This document shows, in pieces, positions 6,418 through 48,311 of a stretch of DNA of 48,407 nucleotides. This stretch comes from an uncultured Alcaligenaceae bacterium (GTDB lineage: Bacteria > Pseudomonadota > Gammaproteobacteria > Burkholderiales > JACQAP01), in the NCBI GenBank assembly GCA_964396485.1, contig CAYNFN010000413.1, forward strand, positions 1-48,407, written 5' to 3'. The position numbers were made by a program, and so were the translations under genes. The notes beneath the pieces are model-generated. The model saw nothing but the letters and a program-made list of their open reading frames with translations, was not told the DNA's origin and ran no database searches. Positions within the stretch are counted from its first letter, which is position 1, and each line of letters starts with the position of its first letter.

Positions 6418-6459
6418 CTCGGAAGGGTGAAGGGAAGATTTCTAATAGTCCCCTGCTTA

Positions 6460-6489: not shown

Positions 6490-6520
6490 CCGCGCTTGTA
6501 CAATTCCGCGTGAGACTCAA

Positions 6521-6526: not shown

Positions 6527-6532
6527 CCGATT

Positions 6533-8748: not shown

Positions 8749-8773
8749 GATTCTTCGACCGCGCCGCGGCGGC

Positions 8774-9847: not shown

Positions 9848-9882
9848 GGAAGTTGCGTACTCAATATGCAGCTAGAATTATT

Positions 9883-14704: not shown

Positions 14705-14719
14705 GGCGCCAACACCGAG

Positions 14720-18925: not shown

Positions 18926-21153
18926 AGTTAGGCGGGACACTGACCGCTTTCGGCCAGTCTTTGCCCTTCGTCGGCGAGGTCTCAAGGTCGGCCTCCGCAT
19001 TTTTCGTCGCCGCCTTCCTCTCGTTGTTGCTCGTGAGCTTCCACAACAATTCAAGCTGCCTACTGATCGGCGTAGATGGCGCGCAGTGGGTGACGATGAT
19101 GGACGCGCAGGCTGCGTTCCGCATCCCGTTCGCCCAAGTCGGAGCCGACCCGTTCCAAGGAAGCTTCGATGCCTATTACCCTTCCTTTCGCGAGTACCTG
19201 CTACCGAACTTGCTGTCACTGCCCTTCACCGGCGGGAACGCCAGTGCGCCGATGGCGTACTTCATTTACGCCGCTTTGATGATGTTCTGCACGTACGCGG
19301 TAGGTCGCGCCGCGGGCATGACGCGCGGAGTGGCATTCTTTGGCGGAAGCCTCGTTCCGCTTCTTGCACTGCCGGTGCGGCCCGGTGACGGACCTATCCT
19401 ATATGCGATCTACAGTCTGAATCCCCATTTTGCCCAGGTCGCGTCCCTCGTACTTTTAATCGTCGCAGCGCTGTGGGCGCTGGATGGACGCGGGCGATCG
19501 GCAACGGTCGGTCTCATGCTCGCGCCCGTGGCCTGCCTGTCGCTCGCCTTCCTTTCGCTGGTTCCATACCTCGTACTGATGGTGGTACCGATCGCGTTCT
19601 ACGGCGCCGGCTCGCTGCTTGCTGCTGAGAATTGGCGGGGGAACATTCCCCGCGTACTTGCCGGACTGCTCATGATTGCCGTCCCGGCGGCGCTCGGCAT
19701 GGTGACCTACGCGTACGGACTGAACAGCTACGGCGTCTATGCGTTCTTTCCGCACGAGCTCGAGCTCCGCCCAGGCGGGGTGGAAGGCCTTCACTACGCC
19801 TCGAACATCTACCATGCCGGTTGGGCTGCCAGGATCCTCCTGGGGTTGGGCGTGATCGGCGCGCTCGGCGCCGCTTGCTGCGGCGGACCCAAGCTGCGTC
19901 GGTTCGCCTTGGTTTATCTCGTCTCGACTGCGCTCTTCCATGTCGCTGCCTACACCCTAGTCGTGTACGTCCCGCTTTCTCGCATCGGGCCGGCGCCGCT
20001 TTATTTCGAGCTCATGCTCCAGCCCTTCTCGATGCTGTTCGCGGCGCTCGCGCTCCTCTTCGGCGCAGACACACTGGCAAAATCCGCAAAGTGGCTCTGG
20101 CAAACCAGGCACTCAGGCGATCAAATCCGCATTGCCGGGATCATCGCCAACGCCGCACTTTGCGCAGCGCCCAGCTACCTCCTCGCCGTGAACGCAAGTG
20201 CCGCCGCGCATCAGTGGCCAGTGACCTGCGCGGGCCGCTCATTTTCGCCGATTCGGCCCACGCCCATCACTGACCGACTGAGACATGAGCTTGCAGTCAG
20301 ACATCACGAGCCCTTCCGCGGCCTCGTCGCCACGATTGCCGGGGCAGGCGAGAAGCCTTCCGCTACTTGGATCGATCTTCATTCCTACGACTACTACATG
20401 TGGAAGGCCGTAGGGAACGATCATCGTACGGTCGGCTTGTGGCGCTATGACGTTCCGACGCTATTCCACTATTCGGTCTATATCACCCCTCCCTACTATC
20501 TGCTGCTGACTGAGTTCCTGGCCAGGCCGGAGGACCAGCAGGTGCGCTCGGTGCTGGTCCTCACCCGCCCCGACGTCGGCATGCTGAAGCTCTGGGGCGC
20601 GCGATTCCTGATCACCGACATCGATAAGGGGATCGGCAAGACGGTTCTCGAAATGAAGATTCCCGGCCAGAAGAACTTGCGCCTCGTCGAGTTGGAGGAT
20701 GCAAATCTCGGAAACTATTCGCCTACCGTCGTTCAGTACGTGGAGGACTTCCGCGAAGGCCTCGCGCTGATGCACAGCAGCGGCTTTGATGCTCGGCGCA
20801 CCGTGGTGACCGACAGCCGCTCCAAGGGATCCTACGTGGAGGCGCAGGACGTTCAGCTTTCCTACGAGCCGGACGGCTTTGCGTTGCGGGCCGTGAGCGC
20901 CGGGCGCTCGATGCTTGTCCTTCCCATTCAATACAGCCGCTGCTGGACGATCTCCACGCCGGATCAGGCGAACCTCTTTCGAGCGAACTTGATGCAGCTG
21001 GGCGTGAGCTTCAGTGGAATGCTCGACGCTCGCCTTGTTTTTCGCTATGGTCCTGTCCTCGCCGGCGATTGCCGGGGCGCTGATCTGCGCGATGCGCTTC
21101 GGCTTCGCGTCGGCGAGGCAAGGGACCGCGCACGGCGCGGGGAAAGCAAGTGA
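18904..21153 (+). CDS. Large polytopic membrane protein with C-terminal soluble domain (GT-C-like / YfhO-like architecture; function inferred only)
   Basis: 749-aa ORF. About 10-11 hydrophobic segments in the first ~430 aa (e.g. MAYFIYAALMMFCTYAVG, VGLMLAPVACLSLAFLSLVPYLVLMVVPIAFYG, FALVYLVSTALFHVAAYTLVVYV), then ~320 aa non-hydrophobic. The start is uncertain. A TTG at 18922 would give a TTGA overlap with the preceding stop. Confidence 0.65.
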   Translation: MLRKEILKLGGTLTAFGQSLPFVGEVSRSASAFFVAAFLSLLLVSFHNNSSCLLIGVDGAQWVTMMDAQAAFRIPFAQVGADPFQGSFDAYYPSFREYLLPNLLSLPFTGGNASAPMAYFIYAALMMFCTYAVGRAAGMTRGVAFFGGSLVPLLALPVRPGDGPILYAIYSLNPHFAQVASLVLLIVAALWALDGRGRSATVGLMLAPVACLSLAFLSLVPYLVLMVVPIAFYGAGSLLAAENWRGNIPRVLAGLLMIAVPAALGMVTYAYGLNSYGVYAFFPHELELRPGGVEGLHYASNIYHAGWAARILLGLGVIGALGAACCGGPKLRRFALVYLVSTALFHVAAYTLVVYVPLSRIGPAPLYFELMLQPFSMLFAALALLFGADTLAKSAKWLWQTRHSGDQIRIAGIIANAALCAAPSYLLAVNASAAAHQWPVTCAGRSFSPIRPTPITDRLRHELAVRHHEPFRGLVATIAGAGEKPSATWIDLHSYDYYMWKAVGNDHRTVGLWRYDVPTLFHYSVYITPPYYLLLTEFLARPEDQQVRSVLVLTRPDVGMLKLWGARFLITDIDKGIGKTVLEMKIPGQKNLRLVELEDANLGNYSPTVVQYVEDFREGLALMHSSGFDARRTVVTDSRSKGSYVEAQDVQLSYEPDGFALRAVSAGRSMLVLPIQYSRCWTISTPDQANLFRANLMQLGVSFSGMLDARLVFRYGPVLAGDCRGADLRDALRLRVGEARDRARRGESK

Positions 21154-22199: not shown

Positions 22200-22682
22200 A
22201 TGGATGTTCTTCTGGGCGCGAATGTCCGCTACTTCTCGTTCGTTAATCTCTATGGCTGCGAGATCGGCGACGAGACGAAGATCGGCACCTTCGTAGAGGT
22301 CCAGCGCGGGGCGAGCATCGGCAAGCGCTGCAAGATCTCGTCGCATACCTTCATCTGCGAGGGCGTTCACATCGGTGATGACGTGTTCGTCGGCCATGGG
22401 GTCATGTTCATCAACGACCGGGCACCGCGGGCGAGCGTGGACGGCAAGCAGGTCACGAATGAATGGTCGCTGGAGGAAACGTTCGTCGAGAACGGCGCAT
22501 CGATCGGCTCCAATGCGACGATCCTGTGCGGCCTTCGCATCGGCCGCCGTGCCGTCGTCGGCGCCGGCGCGGTGGTCACGCGCGATGTGGCGCCCGGATC
22601 GGTGGTCGCCGGAAACCCGGCGCGGCCGATGAAGAGATCGAGGGGCCGGGCGCGCAAGCAGCGAAGCGGCCGGCGGCGATGA
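22200..22682 (+). CDS. Left-handed beta-helix (hexapeptide-repeat) sugar N-acetyltransferase (WbpD/WlbB/PerB-like)
   Basis: Trimmed to the ATG at 22200. Hexapeptide repeats GCEIGDETKIGTFVEVQRGASIGKRCKISSHTFICEGVHIGDDVFVGHGVMF ... IGRRAVVGAGAVV ... GNPARP. The stop overlaps the next start (ATGA at 22679-22682). Confidence 0.85.
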   Translation: MDVLLGANVRYFSFVNLYGCEIGDETKIGTFVEVQRGASIGKRCKISSHTFICEGVHIGDDVFVGHGVMFINDRAPRASVDGKQVTNEWSLEETFVENGASIGSNATILCGLRIGRRAVVGAGAVVTRDVAPGSVVAGNPARPMKRSRGRARKQRSGRRR

Positions 22683-23779
22683 AAGTTCCTTTCAACGACC
22701 TTTCTCTCCAATGGCGGGAAATCCGCGCCGGCCTGATGCCCGAGCTCGAGACATTGTTCGAGAAGAGCGCGTTCTCCCTCGGTTATGCGGTGGACGCGTT
22801 CGAGCGCGAGTTTGCTTCCTACGCGGGCGTGAGCCAGGCCGTGGGTCTGAATTCCGGGACGTCGGCGCTGCATCTCGCGTTGCTTGCGGCCGGCATAGGG
22901 AAGGGCGACAGCGTCATCGTCCCCGCGCATACCTTCATCGCGACTGCCTGGGGTGTTTTGTACGCCGGTGCCACGCCGCTGCTGTGCGACGTCGACCCGG
23001 AGACCGGGAACATCGACTGCGCCGACGCAAGCCACCGCCTGCGTGCCGACACGCGTGCAGTGATACCGGTACACCTTTACGGACAGCCGGCAGACATGGA
23101 CGCGGTCATGGCCCTCGCGGGCGCGCACGGCCTGACCGTGATCGAGGATGCCTGCCAGGCGCACGGAGCGAAGTTTCGCGGCCGGCCGGTGGGCTCCATC
23201 GGGCTTGCGGGTTGCTTTAGCTTCTACCCGGGAAAGAAACTCGGAGCCGCAGGGGAAGCGGGCGCCATCACGACCAATGACGCGGCACTGGCGCAACGCA
23301 CGAAGTCCCTGCGCAACCATGGCCAGTACGAGCGCTACATCCACGCAGAAATCGGCTACAACTACCGCATGGAAGGCGTTCAGGGCTTGGTTCTCTCGCA
23401 CAAGCTGCGTAGGCTGGAAGCCTGGACGAAGGAGCGCCAGCGCCTAGCGCGGCGCCTACTGGAGGGCCTCGCCGGCTTGCCGCTGGGACTGCCGCATCCG
23501 GTCGTCGGCGACCATGTCTACCACCTGTTCGTCGTACGCACTGCCCGGCGCGACGCACTCCGCGCCCATCTGGAGAAGCATGGCGTCCAGACGGGACTGC
23601 ACTATCCGGTGCCCCTGCACCGCCAACCGTGCCTTCAGTACCTGGAATTTGCCCCCGACGCCTATCCGAATGCCGACCGCTATGCCTCCGAGGGGCTCAG
23701 CCTGCCGATCTATACCGGCATGACCGACGGGCAGGCCGACTGGGTAGTCGAATCCGTGCGCGATTTTTTCGGACGCTAA
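22679..23779 (+). CDS. DegT/DnrJ/EryC1-family sugar aminotransferase
   Basis: Trimmed to the ATG at 22679 (MKVPFNDLSLQW...). NSGTSALHLALLAAGIGKGDSVIVPAHTFIATA, IEDACQAHGA, FSFYPGKKLGAAGEAGAITT. Confidence 0.9.
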   Translation: MKVPFNDLSLQWREIRAGLMPELETLFEKSAFSLGYAVDAFEREFASYAGVSQAVGLNSGTSALHLALLAAGIGKGDSVIVPAHTFIATAWGVLYAGATPLLCDVDPETGNIDCADASHRLRADTRAVIPVHLYGQPADMDAVMALAGAHGLTVIEDACQAHGAKFRGRPVGSIGLAGCFSFYPGKKLGAAGEAGAITTNDAALAQRTKSLRNHGQYERYIHAEIGYNYRMEGVQGLVLSHKLRRLEAWTKERQRLARRLLEGLAGLPLGLPHPVVGDHVYHLFVVRTARRDALRAHLEKHGVQTGLHYPVPLHRQPCLQYLEFAPDAYPNADRYASEGLSLPIYTGMTDGQADWVVESVRDFFGR

Positions 23780-25150
23780 ATGCTTCCGACGCCCCTCGCG
23801 CCTTACGAATACGTATGGCCGCGGCCAGGATCGCTGGCAGCGCCGGCATGGCATCGGCTCGAGGGCACGAGACTGCTCGCGCGCTCACTTCCGGAGTCCG
23901 CCGACGAACTGGCGAGGGACAGCCGCTGGCCCGCGCTTTATCCGTCCCCGATCTGCATTGTGACGACCGCAGACGGCGAGGCGGTGGCGATGGAGCGCGT
24001 TGTCGGTCCTTCCATCGTCAATCGCTTCCCGTACATCATGGCGCTCAGCCTGTGTCTGGAAGACTTGTCGGGCCGCCATTATTCCCGCTCGAAGTTCGTC
24101 GATACGCTCGCAAGCGGCAAGGCGGCGGCGATTCAGTTCCTCGGGCCCGGGGTCGCCCTGGATGCGGTCCTGGGCACGATCGCCCGCCTCCCGGATTCGG
24201 ATGCTCATGCGCGCATCTCCGAAACCGGCCTGCCGACGCGGCGCGCGTTCAGCAATTCGGCGCCGGTTTTCAAGGACGCCTACCTCGTCTACGAAGGCAA
24301 GCTCTTGGCCGGGGAAGCTTCTACCAAGATCGGCAGCCATCGGGTCTTCTTCATACAGATTAATGCGATTCAGTTGCGCGAAGACATCGCCGACGGCCGT
24401 GAAGCGATTCTCTGGCGAAGTCTGCCGGCCTGGCAGGCCCACCATAAACCGGAACACATCGAGGAGGCTCGCGCGGTACGGAAGGCGGAGCTCGATCGGC
24501 TGAAATTCCAGAAGCTGTATACGACGCACTATCGGTTCCCGGCGCCTTCAACTGTCGCGTTCGAGCCTACAACGCGGGCCCATGGCATGGCGATCAGGGA
24601 ACTCCCGCCTGATCCCGCGAGGCAAGTGGAAGTGGACAACGAGCGAGCGCGCTGGCCGTGCTTTTTTCCCTCGTCGGTCGGCGTGATTACGTCGCGGACG
24701 GCAAACGGCCGCAGCGCGGTGATGCCGTGCGGCTCAACGATGGTCGTAAGCCGCCATCCGATGGTCATCGCGCCATGCATTTCCTACAACCCGATCAACG
24801 AGCGCTATGCACCGCGCGCGACGCTGGACGTGATTCGCGAATCAGGCAGGTTCGCCTGCGGCGTGCCGTACATCAGCGATGACATTGTCGAATTCATCAC
24901 CTTCACGGGGAACGTTTCGCTGAATACCGATCCGAACAAGCTCGCTCAATGCGGGCTCGACGCGGCGGTGCTTGGAGCAAATCCGGTCCTGCTCGACCTT
25001 CCCGTCACCTTCGAATGCCGCGTAGTGGGGGAGAAGCTGCTAGGTACCCACGCAATGATCTTCGGGGAGGTCGAGCAGGTGCTGGTCAGGGACGACGTCT
25101 CGGAGCGCAATCCCATGCGCTGGTGTCCCTGGGCGACCCTGTCTGGATAG
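23780..25150 (+). CDS. Tandem flavin-reductase-like (split beta-barrel FMN-binding) domain protein
   Basis: 456-aa ORF whose ATG immediately follows the preceding TAA. Two repeats of the pattern: PSPICIVTTADGEAVAMERVVGPSIVNRFPYIMALSL and PSSVGVITSRTANGRSAVMPCGSTMVVSRHPMVIAPCI ... THAMIFGEVEQVLV. Confidence 0.7.
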   Translation: MLPTPLAPYEYVWPRPGSLAAPAWHRLEGTRLLARSLPESADELARDSRWPALYPSPICIVTTADGEAVAMERVVGPSIVNRFPYIMALSLCLEDLSGRHYSRSKFVDTLASGKAAAIQFLGPGVALDAVLGTIARLPDSDAHARISETGLPTRRAFSNSAPVFKDAYLVYEGKLLAGEASTKIGSHRVFFIQINAIQLREDIADGREAILWRSLPAWQAHHKPEHIEEARAVRKAELDRLKFQKLYTTHYRFPAPSTVAFEPTTRAHGMAIRELPPDPARQVEVDNERARWPCFFPSSVGVITSRTANGRSAVMPCGSTMVVSRHPMVIAPCISYNPINERYAPRATLDVIRESGRFACGVPYISDDIVEFITFTGNVSLNTDPNKLAQCGLDAAVLGANPVLLDLPVTFECRVVGEKLLGTHAMIFGEVEQVLVRDDVSERNPMRWCPWATLSG

Positions 25151-25152
25151 CG

Positions 25153-25917
25153 ATGGCCCGCAGGCTACCCGACATCATTATCGGCGGCGCTCCGCGAAGC
25201 GGCACGACTTACCTGTGCCACGTGCTGGACCGCCACCCTGATGCCTTTGTAGCAAAGCCGTTCATTCCGGAACCCAAGGTCTGCATGACTCCGGCCCCCG
25301 GTGGCCCAGAGGGCTACCGGGTTCGCTATCGCGCGCTCTTTGCCGCCGCGGCTCCTCGCCAGATCCTGGTCGAAAAAACGAGCTACTACCTCGAGAACGA
25401 GGATTCCCTCGAACGCCTGCGCCATGCCGTGCCGGCCTGCAAGTTCGTCTTCATCGTCCGGGAGCCGTTGGCGCGCGCTTGGTCGAACTATCTTTGGTCT
25501 CGCAAGAACGGGATCGAAAAGCTCGAGTTCAAAGAGGCGATCCGGCTCGAAGGGAGCCGCAACAGCCCCCTCCCCCCGGAAAAGGCATACGCGCGCCCCT
25601 TCGACTACCTTGCGCGTGGTCGCTATGGTCTCTTCGCCCGCAGGTATCTCGAAGCTTTCGGTCGTTCGAATGTACTGTTCCTGCTGTACGAGGATATCGC
25701 GCTGCGCCCGGCTGAGCTTTACCAATCACTCCAGGAATTCTGCGGACTCGGACCCAGGCCGCAGTCCATGTCGCAGGTCGGCGTGATTAACCCAACTGAC
25801 GAGCTGGAGATCCCCCTGTCTGCGCACGAGCTGCTCGAGCTGCGGCAGCAGATGCGGCCCTGGGTCGAGGACTTCGTGAAAGCATCCGGTGTCGACGTTC
25901 ATGCATGGGGGTACTGA
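25153..25917 (+). CDS. PAPS-dependent sulfotransferase
   Basis: Trimmed to the ATG at 25153. 5'-PSB loop IIGGAPRSGTTYL and 3'-PB motif FVFIVREPLARAWSNY. Confidence 0.85.
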   Translation: MARRLPDIIIGGAPRSGTTYLCHVLDRHPDAFVAKPFIPEPKVCMTPAPGGPEGYRVRYRALFAAAAPRQILVEKTSYYLENEDSLERLRHAVPACKFVFIVREPLARAWSNYLWSRKNGIEKLEFKEAIRLEGSRNSPLPPEKAYARPFDYLARGRYGLFARRYLEAFGRSNVLFLLYEDIALRPAELYQSLQEFCGLGPRPQSMSQVGVINPTDELEIPLSAHELLELRQQMRPWVEDFVKASGVDVHAWGY

Positions 25918-25929: not shown

Positions 25930-26967
25930 ATGGGCGACCGCGCTCTCATATCCTACAATGCCAATATAGCGTCCATGTCGGCAGGTGATACGCGAAACGG
26001 AACTGCAGATAGGAACCTTCGTCTGACCACGCCAAAGATCATCGTCGTCACCCCTGTCTACAACGAGCAGGAGGCGCTGCCGCGCTATGTCGAAAGGATA
26101 AACAGCGTCCTCATGCAGGATCATGACGCACGCTACGAGGTGCTTTTCGTCGACGATGGCAGCACCGACGCCAGCTGGCACGTCCTGGAGGACTTGTGCC
26201 GTAAGGACGAGAGATTCCGCGCCATCCGGCTGTCGCGGAATTTCGGCGCCCACGTTGCGCTGACGGCCGGCATCGACCACGCCGAGGGCGACGCGGTCGT
26301 GACCCTGGCGTGCGATCTTCAGGACCCGCCGGAAGTGGTTCCTGAATTCGTGGTGCGCTGGAAGCGTGGTGCCCAGGTGGTGTGGGGCGTGCGCCGCAGC
26401 CGCACTGATTCGTGGCTGCGCAGCAGGATCAGCGCACTCTTCACGCTCTTGTTGCGCCGTTTCGCGTTGCCTGCCGGATCCCAGTTCGCGACCGGCAGCT
26501 TCCTTCTGCTCGATCGCGTTGTAGTCGAGTGCTTTCGCAAATTTCGCGAACACAACCGGATCACGTTCGCGCTGGTCGCGTGGTCGGGCTTCGATCAGGA
26601 CTCGGTGTTCTACGACCGCACCGAGCGCGTCGCAGGATCGTCGAGCTGGAACGCTTCCCGGCTATGGAAAGTTGGTTACGACGCGCTCATCGGTTTCTCG
26701 GCGATGCCAGCTCGGCTCATGACCCTCACCGGCGTATTTACTTTTTTCGCAAGCCTGATCGCGACCGTATACTTGGTCGGGAGTTATTTTTTCAGTGACG
26801 TGCTGCCCGGATGGACCGGACTCATGGTCACCATGACCTTCTTCTTCGGCGTGCTGTTCATCATGGTGGGAATGGTCGCGGAATACCTGCACCGGATATT
26901 TGTGGAGTCCACGCAGCGGCCGCTGTACTTCGTCAGCCGGAAGGTCGGCGCCGATATCCGCAAGTAG
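25930..26967 (+). CDS. GT2 polyprenyl-phosphate glycosyltransferase (GtrB/ArnC/DPM1-like)
   Basis: 345-aa ORF. IIVVTPVYNEQEAL, LFVDDGSTD, LACDLQDPPE, and two C-terminal TM helices (LMTLTGVFTFFASLIATVYLVG; LMVTMTFFFGVLFIMVGMVAEY). Confidence 0.85.
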   Translation: MGDRALISYNANIASMSAGDTRNGTADRNLRLTTPKIIVVTPVYNEQEALPRYVERINSVLMQDHDARYEVLFVDDGSTDASWHVLEDLCRKDERFRAIRLSRNFGAHVALTAGIDHAEGDAVVTLACDLQDPPEVVPEFVVRWKRGAQVVWGVRRSRTDSWLRSRISALFTLLLRRFALPAGSQFATGSFLLLDRVVVECFRKFREHNRITFALVAWSGFDQDSVFYDRTERVAGSSSWNASRLWKVGYDALIGFSAMPARLMTLTGVFTFFASLIATVYLVGSYFFSDVLPGWTGLMVTMTFFFGVLFIMVGMVAEYLHRIFVESTQRPLYFVSRKVGADIRK

Positions 26968-26977: not shown

Positions 26978-27829
26978 GTGTCTTTAGAGCGTCGAACTAT
27001 TCGAGTGGCGATGGGGCAAATGCTCGTCGAGGGGGGCGAGCCGGAACGCAATCTGTCTCGCGCCGAGCAGATGATCGAGCAAGGCGCCAAAGCCGGTGCG
27101 GATGTCGTATTGCTGCCGGAATGCCTCGACCTAGCCTGGACCCACCCGAGCGCGTTGACCGAAGCCGAGCCCATCCCCGGGCCGCGCAGCGACAGGCTCA
27201 TCGCAGCCGCAACGCGGAACAAGGTGTACTTGTGCGCGGGCTTGACCGAGAAATCGGGCGACCGAGTCTACAACTCGGCAATTTTTTCGACGTCCGACGG
27301 CAAGCTCCTGCTTAAATATCGCAAGATTAATTTGCTGGACGTGGAACAGCCGTTTTACGCCGTAGGGAAGTGCATCTCGGTCGTGGAGACCCCATGGGGA
27401 AACGTGGGAATCAACATCTGTGCGGACAACTACGCGGATTGCCCGGACCTGGGCCACACGCTGGCTCGAATGGGAGCGCAAGTCATCCTGTCGCCGTCGT
27501 CATGGACGGTGGATTATTCCGTGACCGGCGACAACGAGGTATACCGGGATAAGTGGCTCAAGCCCTATCAGACGATCGCTTCGCTCTATAACGTGGTCAT
27601 CGCCAGCGTGACCTCCGTGGGGGTAATCGTGGGGGGACCCTACGAGGGCAAGAAGATGGTCGGCTGCTCCCTGGTGGTAGCGGCAAGCGGCATACTCCAT
27701 CGCGGGAAGTACAACGAGTTCGCCGGCACGTTGAGCGTGGTCGAGTTCGACATCCCCCCCGAGCACGAGACGGGTACCTTGATTGGGGACATGCTCAAGA
27801 AAAAGCGACATGCCTTCAGCTACGGCTAG
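26978..27829 (+). CDS. Carbon-nitrogen hydrolase (nitrilase superfamily) protein
   Basis: GTG at 26978, 10 nt after the preceding stop (ATG at 27011 is an alternative). Candidate E-K-C triad contexts VVLLPECLDL, KYRKINLLD, GINICADNY. Confidence 0.85.
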   Translation: MSLERRTIRVAMGQMLVEGGEPERNLSRAEQMIEQGAKAGADVVLLPECLDLAWTHPSALTEAEPIPGPRSDRLIAAATRNKVYLCAGLTEKSGDRVYNSAIFSTSDGKLLLKYRKINLLDVEQPFYAVGKCISVVETPWGNVGINICADNYADCPDLGHTLARMGAQVILSPSSWTVDYSVTGDNEVYRDKWLKPYQTIASLYNVVIASVTSVGVIVGGPYEGKKMVGCSLVVAASGILHRGKYNEFAGTLSVVEFDIPPEHETGTLIGDMLKKKRHAFSYG

Positions 27830-27845
27830 GCCTTCGGACGAACGC

Positions 27846-29009
27846 ATGGAGGCCGGACGCGGAATGGTCTGCCGCCGCTGCATCGTGGACGAATCGGTGC
27901 CGGGTGCCAATTTCGACGCGAGCGGAATCTGTGCCTACTGCAAGCTCCATGACGAGATGGATGCGTTGTATCCCCTTACCCTCGCGGGCGAAGCTCGCAG
28001 GGCGGAGCTCATCGAGCGCATCAAGAGGAAGGGTGCGGGCCGTGAGTTCGACTGCGTCGTCGGCGTCAGCGGAGGCCGTGACAGCAGCTACCTTCTATAC
28101 CTCACGACCAAGCTCGACCTCAGACCGCTCGCCGTGCATTTCAACGACGGCTTCGGCAATCCTGTGGCCGGCGAGAACATGACGAAGGCGGCTGAGAAGC
28201 TGGGCGTCAGGCTACTGACGATCACTTCTGATTGGCGCGAATCGCGCGACCTAAAGATCGCCTGCCTCAGGGCCTCTGTCCCCAACGCCAACATGTCGAC
28301 GGACCTCGGCCTGGCCGCAGCGCTGTTCGGCGTCGCCGCGCAGCACGATGTGAAATACATTCTGATCGGCCAGTCTTTCCGCACCGAGGGCATAGCGCCC
28401 CTGCCGTGGAATTATCTGGACGGCAAGCATCTCGAGGCGATCCACAGGAGATTTGGTTCGCGCAAGCTGCGGCCGTGGAGGGCCTCCGATCCGGGCTTCC
28501 ACCTGGGGCCGCGCGAATTGTTCTACTACCTGGTCGTTCGCGGGATCCGTTCCGTTCCCCTGCTCTACTACTTCAACTACGTGCGCGCGGACGTGGACAA
28601 GCTGCTCGAGAACGAGCTCGGATGGACGAACACGGGCGCACATTATTTCGACGATTTGTACCAAGCCCTTCTTCACCATCTGCAGCGCGTTAAGTTCAAC
28701 CTCGACCGGCGCAAATTCAACTACAGCGCCCTGGTCCGAAGCAGCCAAATGACGCGCCAGGTTGCGCTCGCGCGGACGAGCGAGGTCTATGCCCTGGAGG
28801 ACCCGAAGGTGATTGACTTGTGTCTGAAACGACTCGGCCTCCCGCGCGAGGAGTTCGAGCAGATCCTGGCGATGCCGCCAAAGTCGTTCCGGGACTATCC
28901 CTCCGGATACGCGACGCTTTCGAAGCTCCGGGGACTGATCTGGCTGATGTCGAAACTCGACCTGGTGCCGCAATCTACCTATCTAAAGTACTTCAAGTAT
29001 GCCTGCTGA
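27846..29009 (+). CDS. N-acetyl sugar amidotransferase (WbpG/PseA/WbuX-type PP-loop ATP-pyrophosphatase)
   Basis: Trimmed to the ATG at 27846 (27864 also possible). N-terminal Cys cluster CRRCIVDES...CAYCKLHD and PP-loop VVGVSGGRDSSYLLY. Confidence 0.85.
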   Translation: MEAGRGMVCRRCIVDESVPGANFDASGICAYCKLHDEMDALYPLTLAGEARRAELIERIKRKGAGREFDCVVGVSGGRDSSYLLYLTTKLDLRPLAVHFNDGFGNPVAGENMTKAAEKLGVRLLTITSDWRESRDLKIACLRASVPNANMSTDLGLAAALFGVAAQHDVKYILIGQSFRTEGIAPLPWNYLDGKHLEAIHRRFGSRKLRPWRASDPGFHLGPRELFYYLVVRGIRSVPLLYYFNYVRADVDKLLENELGWTNTGAHYFDDLYQALLHHLQRVKFNLDRRKFNYSALVRSSQMTRQVALARTSEVYALEDPKVIDLCLKRLGLPREEFEQILAMPPKSFRDYPSGYATLSKLRGLIWLMSKLDLVPQSTYLKYFKYAC

Positions 29010-29916
29010 CCGCTCTAGCCAAGAAGCCGACCACCGCTAGTAGTGCGAAGTGCAGGACATAGGCAGTCGCACACGCCGCAAACGCCGGTGCCGCCTCACC
29101 ACCGGCGATCACCGCAATAGCCGCAAAAGTAGCCTCGCGCACGCCGATTCCCTGAATGGAAATAGGCAGGAAGCGCGAAAATTCCGTGACCACTGCGATC
29201 ATGATGACGATCTCGGGTGTCAGCGCCAGGCCGGCCGCCTCGGTCAGAATGACCACGCATAGGAGCCACGTCAGGACGCCCACTACGGACAGAGCGGAGG
29301 CGACCGACAGGCGGAAGATGGACAAGGCACCGGCAGCGCTCACGGCCTCGGCAAGCCTTTGCAGGATCGGGACGTGAATTCGGCGACGCAGGAACTCGAA
29401 CGGGGCGCCTCGCGCGAGCAGCACCAAGCCGATCGACGCGAGAAGAATCGCCACCATCGCGATGGCCGTCGCCGTGAATAGCGGAATGACGGCCTCACGC
29501 TGGTTGGCCCATGCGTACGCGAGAAGAAAGGCCGCGGCGTAGCCCGCGGTACCCAGCAGGCGTTCGACGACGAGGAGCCCCACGGCGCGCGCCCTGCCTC
29601 CTTCGTAGCGGTCTGCCACCAGCACTCGGTAGGCATCCGCGCCCATGGCGGCCGGCGTCACCAGATTGAAAATCAGTCCGATGAGCGCGTCAATGTAGCC
29701 GGACCGGCTCACCAAACTCTTGGAAGCTATGAGGATGGACCAGCGTGCCGCGAAAATGAGCGTGCTCAAGACCGAAAGCATCGCGATAGCGAGCAATGTG
29801 CCGGCCGAAAACTGGGAGAACGCGCGCCACAGTGCGTCCCAGTCCAGCACGGCGAGCGCGATTCCCAGCGCCGCCACGGTGCCGATCCATCCAACCGCCG
29901 AGCGCCATCGAGCCAT
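28993..29916 (-). CDS. Lysyl-phosphatidylglycerol-synthase-TM-like (UPF0104, flippase-like) integral membrane protein
   Basis: 307-aa ORF, hydrophobic throughout. N-terminal WRSAVGWIGTVAALGIALAVLDWDALWRAF followed by ARWSILI, typical of this family. Last gene of the long minus operon. Confidence 0.75.
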   Translation of the reverse strand: MARWRSAVGWIGTVAALGIALAVLDWDALWRAFSQFSAGTLLAIAMLSVLSTLIFAARWSILIASKSLVSRSGYIDALIGLIFNLVTPAAMGADAYRVLVADRYEGGRARAVGLLVVERLLGTAGYAAAFLLAYAWANQREAVIPLFTATAIAMVAILLASIGLVLLARGAPFEFLRRRIHVPILQRLAEAVSAAGALSIFRLSVASALSVVGVLTWLLCVVILTEAAGLALTPEIVIMIAVVTEFSRFLPISIQGIGVREATFAAIAVIAGGEAAPAFAACATAYVLHFALLAVVGFLARAVSRHT

Positions 29917-29925: not shown

Positions 29926-31059
29926 CTAACCAGCGCGCGCGATTTCGTCGAGATTTCGCAGAATGTAAGTGACCTGCTCTTCCTCCAGGCCCGCGTGCAT
30001 CGGTAGTTGGATGCAACGATCGGCGGCGTTTTCCGTATGTCGCAGCGAAGCCCGAATATCGCAGTATGGCGGCTCGCGATGCGATGCCATTACCCCGCGA
30101 CGCGTGGGTACCTTTCGCTCCCACAACGCATTCATCAGCGCATTGCGGGAAATCGGCGAGCCGTCCGGAACACGCGCCTGAAAGCTTTGCCAGTTTGGCT
30201 CGCAGCCCTGTGGCACGTGCGGCGCCTCGAGCAAGGGATGATCGCGCAAGTGCGCGATATATCGGGCAGCCACGGCCTGCCGCCGCCGAAGGATCTCTGG
30301 CAGGCGCGCCAGTTGCGCGTTGCCGATCGCGGCCTGGATGTCGGTCAGACGGAAGTTGTAGCCGACTTCCGGATAGGTTTCGAACTCGATGGGCGGCGCG
30401 CCGTGGCGCTCGTGGTCCGAGCGCGACATCCCTTGGTGGCGCAGGCGCCTCAGCCGGGCCGCAAAGGCTTCGTCCCGGCAGACGATCATGCCGCCCTCGC
30501 CGGTAGAGACGACCTTGCGTGCGTGCAGCGAAAAGCACGAGACGTCGCAGTACGCTCCTGCCGGCCGCCCGTGCAGGCGGCTGCCGAACGAGCAGGCGGC
30601 GTCCTGCAGCAGGCGTATGTCGCGCCCGCGCAGGAGATCCTGGATCCGATGGATGTCGCACGGCATTCCGATCTGATCGACCGCAATGACGGCGCGGGTA
30701 CGGCTCGTAATCTTGCGCGCTACGTCCTCGGGATCGATGTTCCAGGTCCGCGGATCGATGTCGGCGAAGACTGGCGTGGCGCCGACGTGCAGAACCACGT
30801 TCACCGACGCGATGAAGGTGAGCGATGGAACGATGACCTCGTCGCCCGGGCCGATGCCCCAAGCCTTCAGGATGAGGAAACCGCCCGTCGTCCACGAGGA
30901 AACCGCGACCGCGAACGGACTCTCGCACAGCTCCGCGAACCGGCTCTCGAATCGTGCTTGTTGTGCGCCCCCGACGATCCATCCCGAAGCGACCACTTCG
31001 GCGCACGCCTTCTCTTCTTCCTCACCCATGAAAGGCCGGCTGAAGGCAACGGGCTGCAT
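29926..31059 (-). CDS. DegT/WbpE-type sugar aminotransferase
   Basis: 377-aa ORF. GDEVIVPSLTFIASVNVV, LQDAACSFGS, PLP-Lys context FSLHARKVVSTGEGGMIV. Confidence 0.9.
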   Translation of the reverse strand: MQPVAFSRPFMGEEEEKACAEVVASGWIVGGAQQARFESRFAELCESPFAVAVSSWTTGGFLILKAWGIGPGDEVIVPSLTFIASVNVVLHVGATPVFADIDPRTWNIDPEDVARKITSRTRAVIAVDQIGMPCDIHRIQDLLRGRDIRLLQDAACSFGSRLHGRPAGAYCDVSCFSLHARKVVSTGEGGMIVCRDEAFAARLRRLRHQGMSRSDHERHGAPPIEFETYPEVGYNFRLTDIQAAIGNAQLARLPEILRRRQAVAARYIAHLRDHPLLEAPHVPQGCEPNWQSFQARVPDGSPISRNALMNALWERKVPTRRGVMASHREPPYCDIRASLRHTENAADRCIQLPMHAGLEEEQVTYILRNLDEIARAG

Positions 31060-31063: not shown

Positions 31064-32068
31064 CTACTCAGGCATGCGCCAGTTCACGGTCTCGGCCTCC
31101 AGCAGCCGCGACGGATCGGGATGGCGGCGCCGGAACCATTCGACGTACTGCGCGAGCCCGCGCTCGAAATCGATAGCGGCGACGAACCCGAGCAGCCGGC
31201 GCGCCTGCCGGGTGTCGGCATGCAGCCGATGCACGTCGCCGGGACGCGCTTTGGCAAACTCGGGCCGCAGGCCCGGCTTGCCGCATGCGAGGCATACTGC
31301 CTGCGCCACTTCGGCGATCGTCACCATCCGCCCAAACGCCAGGTTGACGACGCGGCCGACGGCGTCCGGGTGCAGGGCGAGGCGCTTGAGCGCATCGGCG
31401 GTCTCGGTGACATAGGTGAAATCCCGCCCCGCCGTCCCGTCGCCAAAGACTACGGGAGGCACACCGTTCAGCGCGCGGATTACGAAGCGGGGGATCACCT
31501 CCGCGATATCGCCCTGGTCGTGCTCGCGGGGCCCGTACGAGTTGAAGGGCCTGGCCACGACCACCGGCAACCCGTAGGTTCGCAAGTAGGCTTTGGCGTA
31601 GTACTCGCCCGCGAGCTTGGCAGCTCCGTAGACGGTGACCGGCTCGCATAATGTGGTGTCCTCGGGGAGCACCTTGTCGGATGCATTTCCATAGACCTCG
31701 GACGAGGAGCAGTAAAGCATTCGGTCGACCTTCGCTCGCCGCGCCGCTTCCAGTACCTGCAGCGTGCCGGTCGCATTGACCTCGTGATTGCGCAGTGGCT
31801 GGCCCAGCGAGCGGCGCACGCACTCCACGGCGAGGTGATAGACCGTGCTGCAATCCTGCATCGCCTGCGCTACCGCATCCGCGTCGAGGACCGAGCCTTC
31901 CACGATACGCACATCGCCGCGGGCGACCGCCTCGGCAAGGTTGCCGCGATCCCCTGTCGAGAAATCGTCCAGCACCGTCACCGGAATGTCGTCCGCCACC
32001 AGGCTGTCGACCAGGTGGCTGCCGATAAAGCCGGCGCCGCCCGTTACCAGACTGCGCCGCCCTTTCAT
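31064..32068 (-). CDS. Extended-SDR NAD-dependent sugar epimerase/dehydratase
   Basis: Trimmed to the ATG at 32068 (ATGA overlap with the upstream stop). SLVTGGAGFIGSHLV, SSSEVYG, YGAAKLAGE. Confidence 0.9.
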   Translation of the reverse strand: MKGRRSLVTGGAGFIGSHLVDSLVADDIPVTVLDDFSTGDRGNLAEAVARGDVRIVEGSVLDADAVAQAMQDCSTVYHLAVECVRRSLGQPLRNHEVNATGTLQVLEAARRAKVDRMLYCSSSEVYGNASDKVLPEDTTLCEPVTVYGAAKLAGEYYAKAYLRTYGLPVVVARPFNSYGPREHDQGDIAEVIPRFVIRALNGVPPVVFGDGTAGRDFTYVTETADALKRLALHPDAVGRVVNLAFGRMVTIAEVAQAVCLACGKPGLRPEFAKARPGDVHRLHADTRQARRLLGFVAAIDFERGLAQYVEWFRRRHPDPSRLLEAETVNWRMPE

Positions 32069-33087
32069 CGCCCGGAGCGTCCTGCCGCAACGACCTTGGC
32101 AAGGCTTGCATCCAGCGCGGCCTGCGCCGACTCGAGCATCTTCACCACGCGCAATCCCTTGTCGCCTCCCATGATCGGGGCCTCGCGGCCCTTGATCACG
32201 TTGGCGAAGTGCGCGATCGTGCCGGCGAGCGCCTCGCGGCTGGGCACACGGGGCGAGTAGATATCGCCGATCCGGTATTCCGGGATGATGGTGATGCGCT
32301 CGCTTTCCGGCTGAAAGCGGATGCCGCTGTTGTAGATCCGGATCTTTTCCTCCCGGTCGAGGTCGTCCCAGACCGCCATCTGCCGGTCGCCGCCGATGGC
32401 AATACGGCGTACCTTGACCGGAGACATCCAGCTCAGGTTGAAATGCGCGATCATGCCCGAGGCGCAATGCATGGTGACATAGGCGATGTCCGGGAGGTGC
32501 GGATTAACGTGGCAGTAGCCGGTCGCTTCAACGTGAACCGGCTCCACGCCAATGACATGGTCCAAGATTGAGAAATCGTGAGGCGCGAGGTCCCACAGCA
32601 CATTTACGTCCGGCTGGAACAGGCCGAGGTTCACGCGCAGGGAGTCGTAATAGGATATTTTCCCGAGGGCATTGCTGGTGTGGAGCTCCCGCAGCTTCTG
32701 AACCGCCCCCGTGAACAGGAAGGTGTGATCCACCATGAGCGTCACGCCCTGACTCTTGGCCAGGCCGATCAACTCCTCGCATTGCGCGGAGCTCGTGCAC
32801 ATGGGCTTCTCGATCAGCACATGCTTGCCGCGCAGGATCGCCTGCCGGGCGAGCGGGAAGTGCGTCGCCACTGGCGTGGCGATGACGATCGCCAACAGTC
32901 CCGGCCGCTTGAGAAGCTCCTCCGCGTCCTCGAAGGTCTGTGCACCCGGTGCATCGAGCTCGGCGCGGCGCAGCCTTTCCGGATCGCGCTCCGCGATGGC
33001 TTTCACCGCGAAGAGCTTCGAGGCAGCCATGTTGCGCAAGAGGTTGGGCCCCCAGTATCCGTAGCCGATCAGTCCTGTCTCGATCAT
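32065..33087 (-). CDS. Gfo/Idh/MocA oxidoreductase (WbpB-like sugar-nucleotide 3-dehydrogenase type)
   Basis: Trimmed to the ATG at 33087 (MIETGLIGYGYWG). HVLIEKPM motif. Followed by an SDR and a DegT aminotransferase. Confidence 0.85.
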   Translation of the reverse strand: MIETGLIGYGYWGPNLLRNMAASKLFAVKAIAERDPERLRRAELDAPGAQTFEDAEELLKRPGLLAIVIATPVATHFPLARQAILRGKHVLIEKPMCTSSAQCEELIGLAKSQGVTLMVDHTFLFTGAVQKLRELHTSNALGKISYYDSLRVNLGLFQPDVNVLWDLAPHDFSILDHVIGVEPVHVEATGYCHVNPHLPDIAYVTMHCASGMIAHFNLSWMSPVKVRRIAIGGDRQMAVWDDLDREEKIRIYNSGIRFQPESERITIIPEYRIGDIYSPRVPSREALAGTIAHFANVIKGREAPIMGGDKGLRVVKMLESAQAALDASLAKVVAAGRSGR

Positions 33088-33095
33088 GTCTGTCG

Positions 33096-34946
33096 TCACC
33101 CGTCCAGAGAAGCCAGTTTTCGAAGGATATGCTCCACGCATGTGTGTGCGTCGCACTCGGCGGTTTTCAGGTGAACCTCCGCAGCTTCAGGAACCTCATA
33201 GTCGCTATCGATACCCGTAAAATTCTTCAGCTCGCCGCGGCGCGCCTTGGCATAGAGCCCCTTCGGGTCGCGCCGCTCGCACTCCTCTATCGGAGCATCC
33301 ACGAACACTTCGACGAACTCCCTCTCCCCAAAGAGACTGCGTGCCAAGCGCCGTTCGGAGCGGAACGGGGATATGAATGATACGAGCACTATCAGGCCGG
33401 CTTCCGTCATCAGCTTGGCCACTTCGGCAACACGGCGGACGTTCTCTACGCGGTCTGCGTCGGTAAAGCCGAGATCACGATTCAGACCATGGCGCACGTT
33501 GTCGCCATCCAGCATGTACGTGTGCCGCCCGTCGGAAAGTAGACCCTTTTCCAGCAGATTCGCGATGGTGGACTTACCCGACCCCGAGAGGCCGGTAAAC
33601 CAGATACAGAGTGGCGTCTGGTGCTTGACGCTCGCCCGGGACTGCTTGCTGACCGTGACGGCCTGCCACGGAATGTTGGTCGCCCGGCGCAAGGCGAAGT
33701 CGAGCATCCCGGCGCCGAGGGTCTGGAAACTTAGCTTATCGATGATGATAAAGCCGCCCAGCGTGCGGTTGACCGAGTAAGGCTCGAAAGCGACGGGCTG
33801 GCTCAAGCTGAGGTTGACTACCCCGATCTCGTTCAGATGGAGCGTCTTGGAAGCAAGACGCGCACCGGTATTCGTATCTTCGCGGTATTTGATTTCGGTT
33901 ATTGTCGCCGTGACTTCCTTATAGTGAATCTTCAATAGGTAGGGCCGTCCCGGGATCAGCGGCTGGGCGGCCATCCATATCAATCTCGCCTCAAACTGAT
34001 CTGCGACCTGCGGCGGCTCACCCTCCGAAGCAACGACGTCGCCACGGCTCCCATCGACATCGTCCGCAAGCGTGAGCGTTACGGAAGCTGAGCCGTCAGC
34101 GTGTTCCGTGTTTCCTTTCCAGCCAACAATCTCCTTCACGCGGGACGAAACGCCGGAAGGCATGAGCCGTACGCGGTCTCCCTGCCGCACTGTGCCCGCA
34201 GCGATGCGGCCAGCGAAACCGCGAAAATCCATAATCGGGCGATTCACGCACTGCACCGGCATGCGGAATGGAGCCGGGGCTGCTGGATCGGCAATGACGA
34301 CCATATCCAGGTACGACATGAGGCTGGGCCCCTTGTACCAAGGGGTGCGCGCGCTGGGTAGCAGGACATTGTCGCCGTCCAAGGCGCAGACCGGAATCGT
34401 CTGAATCGACAAAAAATTGGATGCAGACGCGAACGCCTGATACTCGTCGGCGATCCGCTCGAATGCGCCGCGGTCGAATCGCACCTGGTCCATCTTGTTC
34501 ACTGCCAATACGATATGGCGTATCCCCATCATCGCAATGATCCGGGTGTGGCGACGGGATTGCGTCAGGACGCCTTTACGCGCGTCGATCAAGATGACCG
34601 CCAGATCCGCGGTGGACGCGCCGGTGGCCATGTTGCGAGTGTATTGCTCATGGCCGGGCGTATCGGCCACGATGAATTTTCGTCTGGGAGAGGCGAAATA
34701 GCGGTATGCGACATCGATGGTATTCCCTTGTTCGCGCTCGGCCTGCAGTCCGTCGACCAATAGGGCAAAGTCGAGGTTGTCTCCCTGGGTCCCGTATTTG
34801 CGGGAATCCGATTCGAGCGCGCGCAACTGGTCGTCAAAGATGCACTTGCTTTCATAGAGTAGCCGGCCGATCAGGGTGGACTTGCCGTCGTCAACGCTTC
34901 CACAAGTGACAAAGCGAAGCGTCTGCTTGGCGGCTTGTGATCGCAA
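33096..34946 (-). CDS. cysNC: Bifunctional sulfate adenylyltransferase subunit 1 / adenylylsulfate kinase (CysN-CysC, NodQ-like)
   Basis: 616-aa ORF with a TTG start. GTPase G1 [28 protein letters not shown]-terminal APS-kinase P-loop [14 protein letters not shown]. Confidence 0.95.
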
Positions 34947-34981: not shown

Positions 34982-35866
34982 TCAGAAGTACCCCTCCTGC
35001 TTCTTCTTTTCCATGGATGCCGATTGATCGGAGTCGATCAAGCGGTCTTGCCGTTCGGAGGAGCGCGCATTGAAGGTCTCGGCAATGATCTCCGCTACGG
35101 TTGTAGCCGAGCTTTCAATGGCGCCGCTGAGCGGATAGCAGCCGAGCGTGCGAAAGCGCACCAGCCGCATCTCCGGGGTTTCACCCTTCGCCATGGCAAA
35201 ACGCTCGTCATCAACCATAATGAGCGTGGACCCGCGCCGCACCACTGGCCGCATCTTTGCAAAATACAGGGACACTATGGAAATCTTCTCAAGATGGATG
35301 TATTGCCAGATGTCGAGCTCCGTCCAGTTCGAAAGGGGGAATACGCGCACGCTCTCCCCCGGCCGGACATGCGTGTTGTAGAGGTTCCAAAGCTCTGGCC
35401 TTTGCGCTTTCGGGTCCCATCGATGGCCGGGGGCCCGAACCGAGAAGATACGTTCCTTGGCGCGAGACTTTTCCTCGTCTCGCCGGGCGCCGCCAAATAC
35501 CACATCGAATCCCCGACTATCGAGCACCTGCCTAAGCGCTTGGGTCTTCATTACATCGGTGTAGTAGCTTGACCCGTGCGTAAACGGATTCACGCCCGCC
35601 TCCAGGCCTTCCCGATTCACGTGCACAAAGAGTTCCATGCCCGATTCCGCGATTGCCCGCGCGCGATGCGCGTACATGTCTCGGAATTTCCATGTGGTGT
35701 CCACGTGCAGGAGCGGGAAGGGCGGGGGGCCCGGGTGGAAAGCCTTTCGCGCCAGATGTAGCATGACGGAGGAGTCCTTGCCGACCGAATAGAGCATTAC
35801 CGGGTTGCGCGCCGATGCGACGGCCTCCCGAATTATCTCGATGGCTTCGGACTCGAGGTCAGTCAT
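34982..35866 (-). CDS. cysD: Sulfate adenylyltransferase subunit 2 (CysD, NodP-like)
   Basis: Trimmed to the ATG at 35866 (ATGA overlap with the NUDIX stop). PAPS-reductase-fold motifs [48 protein letters not shown]. Confidence 0.95.
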
Positions 35867-36354
35867 TGCGCCTGGCCGCCGAGTTGCGGAGTCTCCATTC
35901 GATGCTTGCTGAGATGCAACCATACGGCGAAGCTGTCGTAGGGGGTAACGCGCCGGTTCAGCAGAAGTTCCCGTCCACCGACCGCTTCAAAGGCGGCGCC
36001 TTCATGCAAGGTGAACTTCGCAAAGGCTGCGGCGGAAACCTGCACCTCGTAGTAAATGCGGAACACTCTGCTTCCCCCTAGCTCCGAAAAATCGAAATCG
36101 AAGCGCGTCAGCACTTTCGGCGGCGCCTCGAGCTCGTATTCCAGTTCCTCTTTGAGCTCCCGTGCGAGGGCGGACAAGGGCGGTTCGCTTCCATTTACTG
36201 CGCCGCCGAAGCAGCCCCAATGGTCCGGATAGAAGATGCCAGGAATGTTATCTCGGAGCTGCATGACGTAGCGACCGTCGGCGAGAACCAGAACCGCGGC
36301 TACCGCGTCCGCGCCCCTCAGGGGTGTCTTGGCATCTAGGAGAAGGTGCTGCAA
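35863..36354 (-). CDS. NUDIX hydrolase
   Basis: 163-aa ORF. The Nudix box [25 protein letters not shown] fits Gx5Ex7REUxEE. Confidence 0.85.
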
Positions 36355-44379: not shown

Positions 44380-44389
44380 GGTTTAACTC

Positions 44390-47122: not shown

Positions 47123-47135
47123 TTGAACTCCCTGA

Positions 47136-48253: not shown

Positions 48254-48277
48254 GGAGAAGGGCCGAAAAAGGATCAA

Positions 48278-48306: not shown

Positions 48307-48311
48307 CCCGG

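Follow-up and report, generated by a model that had tools for sequence, protein, structure and literature searches.

A nitrilase-superfamily hydrolase linked to an N-acetyl sugar amidotransferase in many bacterial phyla: a candidate two-subunit amidotransferase without HisH/HisF2

A contig of 48,407 nt from an uncultured Alcaligenaceae bacterium (CAYNFN010000413.1, assembly GCA_964396485.1; referred to here in its full length as the window) carries the gene of a carbon-nitrogen hydrolase of the nitrilase superfamily directly upstream of the gene of an N-acetyl sugar amidotransferase (NASAT), a PP-loop ATP pyrophosphatase. We propose that the two proteins make up a two-subunit amidotransferase in which the nitrilase-superfamily amidase, as ammonia donor, has displaced the HisH/HisF2 proteins of the classical NASAT systems, and we put the probability of this reading at roughly 60%. 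With much greater confidence, we regard the hydrolase and the NASAT as a functional unit of some kind. The gene identities, catalytic motifs, folds, linkage in both search directions, and exclusivity towards HisH/HisF2 in the examined loci, on which the proposal is built, were computed directly. A description of such a hydrolase-NASAT pair was found neither in the literature nor among the curated NCBIfam models.

The original prediction, made from the DNA letters alone, had placed a carbon-nitrogen hydrolase and a PP-loop sugar amidotransferase side by side, and matches to PF00795 and TIGR03573 indeed lie at 26978-27829 and 27846-29009. The sequence strings that it quoted (VVGVSGGRDSSYLLY, LLPE, RKINL, and ICAD) are all present in the translations. 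The NASAT matches the NCBIfam model TIGR03573 ("WbuX, N-acetyl sugar amidotransferase") end to end with E=8e-59, residues 8-341 aligning with profile positions 3-343 of 344, and its 199.8 bits narrowly miss the curated cut-off of 203.2. Many homologues with 56-63% identity carry the NCBI name "N-acetyl sugar amidotransferase." The PP-loop reads SGGRDS, with S, G, G, D, and S invariant both in NASATs from hydrolase-containing loci (CN-type) and in classical members. The tetracysteine motif CRRC...SGICAYC has its four cysteines (C3, C6, C23, and C26) invariant in 20 members of the clade, and a CxxC...[GN]xCxxC motif binds zinc in the crystal structure 8WEX of the Legionella enzyme, LpNASAT (PMC10607449). 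The same structure is the best PDB match of the predicted NASAT model (pLDDT 83.8; E=7e-14, TM 0.63-0.64), followed by TtuA as the next family (E=3e-7, TM 0.33), and NAD synthetases appear only at E ~5e-4. The clade is 31-36% identical to classical NASATs, has a six-residue insertion relative to them, and shows strongly conserved motifs, namely HFNDGFGNPVAGENM, a DPGF insertion, and GAHYYDDLYQ. Judged by sequence and modelled fold, the amidotransferase is a NASAT of a divergent clade.

The hydrolase matches the Pfam domain CN_hydrolase (PF00795) over residues 9-258 with E=1e-30 and 107 bits. No NCBIfam equivalog model comes near its cut-off, the best being an archaeal nitrilase model with 86 bits against a required 500. 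The Glu-Lys-Cys triad, for which the original prediction had pointed to plausible sequence contexts, is invariant as E48, K116, and C148 among 20 aligned homologues that come from distant phyla, and C148 aligns with C146 of the Pyrococcus horikoshii amidase, which is represented by the C146A mutant structure 6YPA. Comparison of the AlphaFold model (pLDDT 84) with the PDB returned the mouse omega-amidase Nit2 (2W1V) and the P. horikoshii amidase, which is glutaramide-bound, as top matches (TM 0.75-0.80); N-carbamoylputrescine amidase, formamidases, and aliphatic amidases are further close folds (TM 0.7-0.8). Nit2 2W1V and P. horikoshii 6YPA/1J31/3IVZ are also the best sequence matches, at E=7e-21 to 4e-18 and 24-30% identity. 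The triad is thus set in an alpha-beta-beta-alpha fold, the combination that defines the nitrilase superfamily.

Within this superfamily, the hydrolases form a clade with invariant motifs of their own (LVEGGEP, WTHPSA, PSSWTVDY, and VGGPYEGKK), and homologues are 54-79% identical across phyla. At E<=1e-10 we found 2,336 homologues, and in public annotation they go under no more specific names than "carbon-nitrogen hydrolase family protein" and "predicted amidohydrolase." As nearest outgroup we found hydrolases of Cellulomonas, Lederbergia, and a JGI contig with 42-45% identity; each is encoded by a solitary gene in a different, unrelated context, and these three contexts gave no sign of an older PP-loop partnership. 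Because the outgroup hydrolases are solitary, we read the NASAT-linked clade as a specialised offshoot, recruited from stand-alone amidases.

In the window, the TAG stop codon of the hydrolase gene ends at position 27829 and the first ATG of the NASAT frame lies at 27846, which leaves the 16 nt given by the original prediction. A second ATG, at 27864, follows a GGAGG at a distance of 10 nt and was chosen as start in the public annotation (P0121, 381 aa); translation probably begins there, which would widen the gap to 34 nt. The two open reading frames (ORFs) differ in frame and are separated by a stop codon, so that two polypeptides are encoded and not one. The gene of a family-2 glycosyltransferase (GT2) stops 10 nt before the GTG start of the hydrolase. 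Since GT2, hydrolase, and NASAT genes are co-oriented with short gaps, they look like one transcription unit. A scan for promoters and terminators between 17800 and 30200 gave nothing above the shuffled expectation.

To follow the pair through other genomes, we used the hydrolase alignment to search a single genome of each species, which gave 269 relatives matching the clade motifs, and retained the best 80 loci. These comprise 17 loci from Omnitrophota, 31 from Hymenobacter, 18 from other Bacteroidota, three from Planctomycetes, two each from Nitrospinota and Bdellovibrionota, one each from Actinomycetota, Acidobacteria, Gammaproteobacteria, and Deltaproteobacteria, and three that are unclassified. 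Using tblastn, we found a NASAT 49-64% identical to that of the window in 79 of the best 80 hydrolase loci. In most of them it directly follows the hydrolase in the same orientation, the aligned ends being 8-224 nt apart; in four genome loci, the NASAT comes first. The reverse approach, in which metagenomes were searched with the NASAT, yielded 80 loci, nine of which were too short upstream to be informative. Among the 71 informative contigs the hydrolase is present in 68 and adjacent in 61. Altogether, the adjacent and co-oriented arrangement holds for most of the 147 linked loci. Homologues of both proteins, about 60% identical, occur in Hymenobacter, Omnitrophota, Nitrospinota, Actinomycetota, and others, with contigs common to both match lists. 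As 79/80 and 68/71 loci are linked, the adjacency is far beyond chance, and the pair is kept together in at least ten bacterial lineages. The recurrence of the adjacency, which the original prediction had made a touchstone, was thus seen in many phyla and from both search directions.

The loci of Hymenobacter type (n=31; 30 Hymenobacter genomes and one Cytophagales metagenome-assembled genome, MAG) have the pair beside valS and no adjoining glycan genes. Because the pair stands alone there, the conserved unit is the pair itself and not a larger island. This bears on the view that the adjacency is functionally meaningless and that unrelated genes were co-carried by horizontal transfer of a glycan island. 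Identities of about 60% in both genes across distant phyla do indicate lateral spread, and the neighbouring genes co-vary too. However, the 79/80 and 68/71 linkage persists while the surrounding genes change, down to the bare pair of the Hymenobacter-type loci, order and strand are mostly kept, and the junctions are short or overlapping. We therefore consider mere co-carriage very improbable. In the same loci, mean identity is 64% for the hydrolase and 60% for the NASAT, compared with 37% for the adjoining GT2.

To our knowledge, the ammonia supply of acetamidino-sugar synthetases is only partly established, even for the classical HisH/HisF2 systems. In the classical view, HisH2 and HisF2 deliver ammonia to WbpG, with HisH as the glutaminase and the HisF2 barrel as the route, and WbpG and HisF2 co-immunoprecipitate (PMC11445079); in a Sphingomonas transposon screen, the WbuX, HisF2, and HisH genes of one cluster were all hit (PMC11340318). 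Searched by tblastn with three HisH and two HisF2 proteins from classical NASAT loci, neither the window nor loci L001-L085 gave a match at E<=1e-3, nor did the metagenome loci L093-L172 at E<=1e-5. Likewise, Pfam and NCBIfam scans of most candidate ORFs of the window, chosen by a screen for GC content at third codon positions (GC3), revealed no class-I glutaminase, HisF-type barrel, or asparagine-synthase domain, with about 12157-13297 as the main unscanned stretch. Both results agree with the earlier statement that no hisH/hisF-like gene is present in the window. In a tblastn search of plasmids, the window NASAT found eight full-length relatives with 31-36% identity, and seven of these loci were inspected. 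No more than 6 kb away, all seven carry hisH and a gene annotated "AglZ/HisF2 family acetamidino modification protein," which makes them the positive control (7/7), and the hydrolase is absent from all seven. Counted over all loci, hisH/hisF2 genes lie near the NASAT in 0/161 CN-type loci (the window, 80 genome, and 80 metagenome loci) versus 7/7 classical loci, and the mutual exclusivity that the original prediction had asked about is evident in this sample.

From these data we infer a complex, a transfer of ammonia, its donor, a sugar substrate, and an acetamidino product. At the expense of ATP, the NASAT would transfer an adenylyl group to the carbonyl oxygen of the N-acetyl group on an amino-deoxy sugar, with release of PPi; the sugar would be supplied by the neighbouring dehydratase, aminotransferase, and acetyltransferase genes. 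The cytoplasmic amidase would hydrolyse a small primary amide via a Cys148 thioester and pass the ammonia to the NASAT, where it would displace AMP and give rise to a positively charged acetamidino group. The donor amide would most likely be glutamine, because amidotransferases in general draw their nitrogen from glutamine and because the structurally solved enzymes nearest to the hydrolase bind C5 monoamides. Such a system would represent a non-orthologous displacement of HisH/HisF2, reproducing the design of NAD synthetase on a different PP-loop scaffold.

Comparison with known systems shows what is common and what differs. The classical NASAT system (WbpG/WbuX/PseA/LfnA of TIGR03573, together with HisH2 and AglZ/HisF2) has the same synthetase family, with PP-loop, zinc tetracysteine, and 8WEX fold, a similar glycan-locus context (DegT, Gfo/Idh/MocA, and acetyltransferase genes), and presumably the same ammonia-requiring chemistry, but it employs HisH2 plus HisF2 whereas the CN-type loci have a single nitrilase-superfamily protein. 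Fused NAD synthetase (NadE/NADSYN1) combines the same folds, with a Cys-Glu-Lys amidase making ammonia for an ATP-adenylating PP-loop enzyme; there, however, both reside in one polypeptide, whereas here the genes are separate, the hydrolase is not of NadE type, and the synthetase is a NASAT. The closest architectural precedent is the two-subunit NAD synthetase of Thermus thermophilus (TTC1538-TTC1539), whose nitrilase-like glutaminase and PP-loop synthetase are separate proteins encoded in one operon that form a tight 1:1 complex using glutamine (PMC3376133). Its G- and S-subunit genes are adjacent and co-oriented, as in the window, but substrate and synthetase family are different, and the complex that is demonstrated for Thermus is a prediction for the window. 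The Nit2 and P. horikoshii amidases have the fold and the aligned triad in common with the hydrolase and release ammonia from glutamine-like C4/C5 monoamides; in contrast to the window clade, which is locked to a PP-loop partner, they are stand-alone metabolic or repair enzymes.

By analogy, the pair may thus work like NAD synthetase, and especially like the two-subunit Thermus enzyme, as an analogous and not an orthologous system. The original prediction had described it as a split NadE-like pair. As an analogy of design this is sound, and the Thermus enzyme is a precedent closer still than the fused one, but by descent the hydrolase is not a NadE-type glutaminase: it scores 42.6 and 18 bits with the NAD+ synthase models, whose cut-offs are 479 and 473, and its top 50 structural matches include no NAD synthetase.

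Several observations weigh against the proposed two-subunit amidotransferase. The exclusivity applies to about 10 kb on each side of the pair and not to the rest of the genomes, and housekeeping hisH/hisF genes exist somewhere in every genome. Hydrolase and NASAT are 1.5-5.5 kb apart in several loci. The sole exception among the 80 hydrolase loci, a Chitinophagales MAG (L076, 10010-11914), has no NASAT within 4.7 kb downstream of the hydrolase, which is followed by a 352-aa ORF. Three informative NASAT loci (L132, L155, and L156) are without the hydrolase; in L155, a low-GC marine contig with the NASAT at 6028-7167, it is missing within 6-8 kb. The hydrolase has no specific kinship to NadE glutaminase domains, so any glutamine specificity cannot be read from homology. 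The identities of hydrolase and NASAT correlate in a mirror-tree analysis (r=0.82, or 0.62 without Hymenobacter; Mantel p ~0.001), but we rejected this as evidence of interaction, since it is no better than the correlation with GT2 (0.51-0.79) and reflects co-inheritance, not co-adaptation. Finally, a hydrolase search of 1.84 billion representatives gave no genuine hydrolase-NASAT fusion among the best 150 representatives.

The long matches in this search comprised fusions of the hydrolase with RsmI or an S41 peptidase, hydrolases in tandem, and proteins whose N-termini are unrelated. An apparent fusion, P0214, is a 436-aa NASAT with an N-terminus corresponding to the hydrolase C-terminus, and was dismissed as an assembly artefact with two frame breaks in the hydrolase. 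In the Omnitrophota MAG that encodes it (L173, 3333-5311), one frame break falls on an A7 run, and the normal hydrolase end (KKGYLKNGI-stop) is intact in another frame. Read in this way, the stop codon of the hydrolase gene lies across codons 3-4 of the NASAT gene, and this overlap may point to translational coupling.

The genes surrounding the pair in the window are summarized in Table 1.

Table 1. Positions of the hydrolase-NASAT pair and of neighbouring sugar genes in the window.
Feature	Position	Strand	Remarks
Hexapeptide-repeat sugar N-acetyltransferase (NeuD/PglB/VioB type)	22200..22682 (start approximate)	+	PF00132; TIGR03570 81.9 bits, below cut-off
Second DegT-family aminotransferase	22679..23779	+	PF01041 2.6e-110; same + strand operon
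Family-2 glycosyltransferase, polyprenyl-phosphate type (ArnC/PgfS-like)	25930..26967	+	PF00535 1.8e-30; directly upstream of hydrolase
Carbon-nitrogen hydrolase (nitrilase superfamily)	26978..27829	+	GTG start, 283 aa; proposed ammonia-generating subunit
N-acetyl sugar amidotransferase (NASAT, PP-loop ATP pyrophosphatase)	27846..29009	+	Likely start ATG 27864, 381 aa; proposed synthetase subunit
Flippase-like membrane protein, LPG_synthase_TM domain	28993..29916	-	PF03706 7.3e-24; convergent, overlaps NASAT stop by 17 nt
DegT-family sugar aminotransferase (PseC/ArnB-like)	29926..31059	-	PF01041 7e-101; recurring cassette
SDR sugar 4,6-dehydratase/epimerase	31064..32110	-	PF01370 5e-60; recurring cassette
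Gfo/Idh/MocA sugar oxidoreductase	32065..33156	-	PF01408 2e-25; recurring cassette

None of the cassette proteins reaches the cut-off of the specific NCBIfam models compared with it. GT2 scores 179 bits with PgfS and 165 bits with ArnC (cut-off 529), both below the cut-offs, and the DegT protein beside the flippase-like gene scores 259 bits with ArnB, for which 631 are required. The SDR protein is almost equally close to dTDP-glucose 4,6-dehydratase (182 bits) and LegB (181 bits), again below both cut-offs, and the Gfo/Idh/MocA protein has 112.7 bits with the UDP-GlcNAc 3-dehydrogenase model, also too few. The hexapeptide-repeat acetyltransferase is the likely maker of the N-acetyl group on which the NASAT would act.

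Similar genes accompany the pair elsewhere. A census of 50 loci not of Hymenobacter type found an ArnC/PgfS-like GT2 in 29, a DegT aminotransferase in 24, an SDR protein in 21, a hexapeptide acetyltransferase in 19, and a Gfo/Idh/MocA protein in 17. Homologues of the DegT protein beside the flippase-like gene (40-54% identical) precede GT2 and the pair in L094, L103, L111, L116, L006, and L017, and the second DegT has homologues (57-61% identical) in the closest relatives, L093 and L094. An LPG_synthase_TM domain adjoins the pair in L002 from Omnitrophota, in L004 and L005 from Actinomycetota, and in L094. Between GT2 and hydrolase, 23 of the 50 loci carry a hydrophobic membrane ORF of 128 aa (e.g., L034 7396-7782), which may encode a small flippase subunit; we dropped the name ArnE/F-like for it as it has no Pfam hit. 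This ORF is absent from the window, where the LPG_synthase_TM flippase-like gene is present instead. The order Gfo - SDR - DegT - GT2 - hydrolase - NASAT is found in Omnitrophota and several metagenome contigs, and the window has the same set split over two strands. According to their family assignments, the cassette genes are predicted to make an amino-deoxy sugar with an N-acetyl group, in keeping with an acetamidino product.

This context also bears on a second alternative, namely a two-subunit amidotransferase with another product, for example the amide of a uronic acid or other carboxylate, as NAD synthetase makes, and perhaps with a non-sugar substrate where the pair stands alone. The divergence of the clade from classical NASATs, with its own motifs and a score just under the TIGR03573 cut-off, the missing glycan genes next to the pair in Hymenobacter, and a nucleotide-sugar dehydrogenase elsewhere in the window would all suit this idea. 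It is countered by the PP-loop, the tetracysteine, and the fold, which fit LpNASAT far better than other PP-loop enzymes (E=7e-14 vs 3e-7), and by the makers of N-acetylated amino sugars, which are the commonest neighbours outside Hymenobacter. We consider such a product improbable.

The GT2 and the LPG_synthase_TM flippase-like protein suggest that the sugar might be loaded on undecaprenyl phosphate and flipped, by analogy with the aminoarabinose pathway. The likeness of the window to an Arn-type pathway consists of the ArnC-like GT2, the ArnB-like DegT, and the flippase-like protein; with scores far below the equivalog cut-offs, it is a resemblance only.

The same resemblance opens the way to a third alternative, in which the hydrolase acts on the sugar itself and the NASAT uses free ammonia. 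The hydrolase could then be a de-N-acylase that unmasks an amine on a nucleotide- or undecaprenyl-phosphate-linked sugar, as ArnD does, or an amidine hydrolase. The pair often lies within an Arn-like cassette (SDR, DegT, acyltransferase, ArnC-like GT2, and a small membrane or LPG_synthase_TM protein), and no ArnD-type deacylase was noticed in this cassette. Some members of the nitrilase superfamily cleave or transfer secondary amides (biotinidase, vanins, and Lnt). On the other hand, the cassette is missing from the 31 Hymenobacter-type loci, which ties the hydrolase to the NASAT and not to GT2 or the flippase, and the closest relatives in sequence and structure are amidases of small primary amides and not secondary-amide enzymes. 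Moreover, removal of the acetyl group that the NASAT should activate would be counter-productive, and the loss of HisH/HisF2 would be left unexplained. We regard a hydrolase acting on the sugar as unlikely, if marginally less so than the alternative product.

Returning to the amidase as ammonia donor, we tentatively extend the proposal to a broader scenario, with the odds somewhat against it. A nitrilase-superfamily amidase would have independently become the dedicated, channel-coupled ammonia donor of sugar acetamidino synthetases, one protein taking the place of HisH/HisF2, and the pair would have spread laterally to at least ten lineages. Its product would be a cationic acetamidino sugar, in many lineages loaded on undecaprenyl phosphate and flipped, that serves as a charge-modifying decoration of the envelope like aminoarabinose. 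Acetamidino sugars place positive charge on bacterial surface glycans and shape serotype as well as phage and immune recognition. If true, the two-subunit amidotransferase would be a clear-cut instance of non-orthologous displacement inside an amidotransferase complex, would mean that the NAD-synthetase solution of a nitrilase-fold amidase and a PP-loop enzyme was reached more than once in evolution, and would give a function to a large number of genes whose present label says no more than "carbon-nitrogen hydrolase family protein." Being small, soluble, and highly conserved, the pair should lend itself to structural work on ammonia channelling, and the bare two-gene unit of Hymenobacter should simplify genetics.

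Further genes of the window may concern the modification of its glycan. A sulfotransferase gene (25150-25917, plus strand) lies in the same operon as the pair and is also found in L093 and L094. Genes for making 3'-phosphoadenosine 5'-phosphosulfate are present in the same island, encoding a bifunctional CysN/CysC (33096-34946, minus strand; 960.8 bits) and CysD (34982-35923, minus strand; 502.4 bits). Because the island has the sulfotransferase together with CysN/CysC and CysD, the glycan of the window is probably sulfated. The operon contains, in addition, a gene for a 456-aa protein with two flavin-reductase-like domains (23780-25150, plus strand), a 46% identical copy of which is located between NASAT and hydrolase in a Gammaproteobacteria MAG (L053 4799-6175). 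In other loci, a 542-aa ORF follows the NASAT (11 loci, e.g., L080 12011-13639) and resembles NodU/CmcH-type carbamoyltransferases by eye only, and genes for B12-binding radical SAM proteins lie on the flanks of the pair in several Omnitrophota. Both suggest that the same sugar is decorated further.

Towards its right end, the window encodes a transketolase, which is split, together with a transaldolase, a SIS-domain isomerase, and a PfkB-kinase/cytidylyltransferase fusion (36362-38118, 42814-44382, 46388-47188, and 47672-48406, all on the minus strand), and these lie among four SDR genes. Judging from these gene families, this part appears to specify a nucleotide-sugar pathway of the heptose type that has pentose-phosphate enzymes of its own.

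Pfam gave no hit for six long ORFs of 426-749 aa whose GC3 is of coding type; they are located at 1963-3291, 3308-4588, 4546-6417, and 18904-21153 on the plus strand and at 7327-8778 and 13298-14719 on the minus strand. The 749-aa ORF, a candidate membrane protein without a family hit, recurs at 24-37% identity in L093 and L094 and could encode the final glycan transferase. The glycan island also harbours genes for a radical SAM/SPASM protein (8774-9871, minus strand) and for an aminoglycoside 3-N-acetyltransferase-like protein (11233-12156, plus strand; PF02522, 152.8 bits), the latter being more likely a sugar N-acetyltransferase than a resistance determinant.

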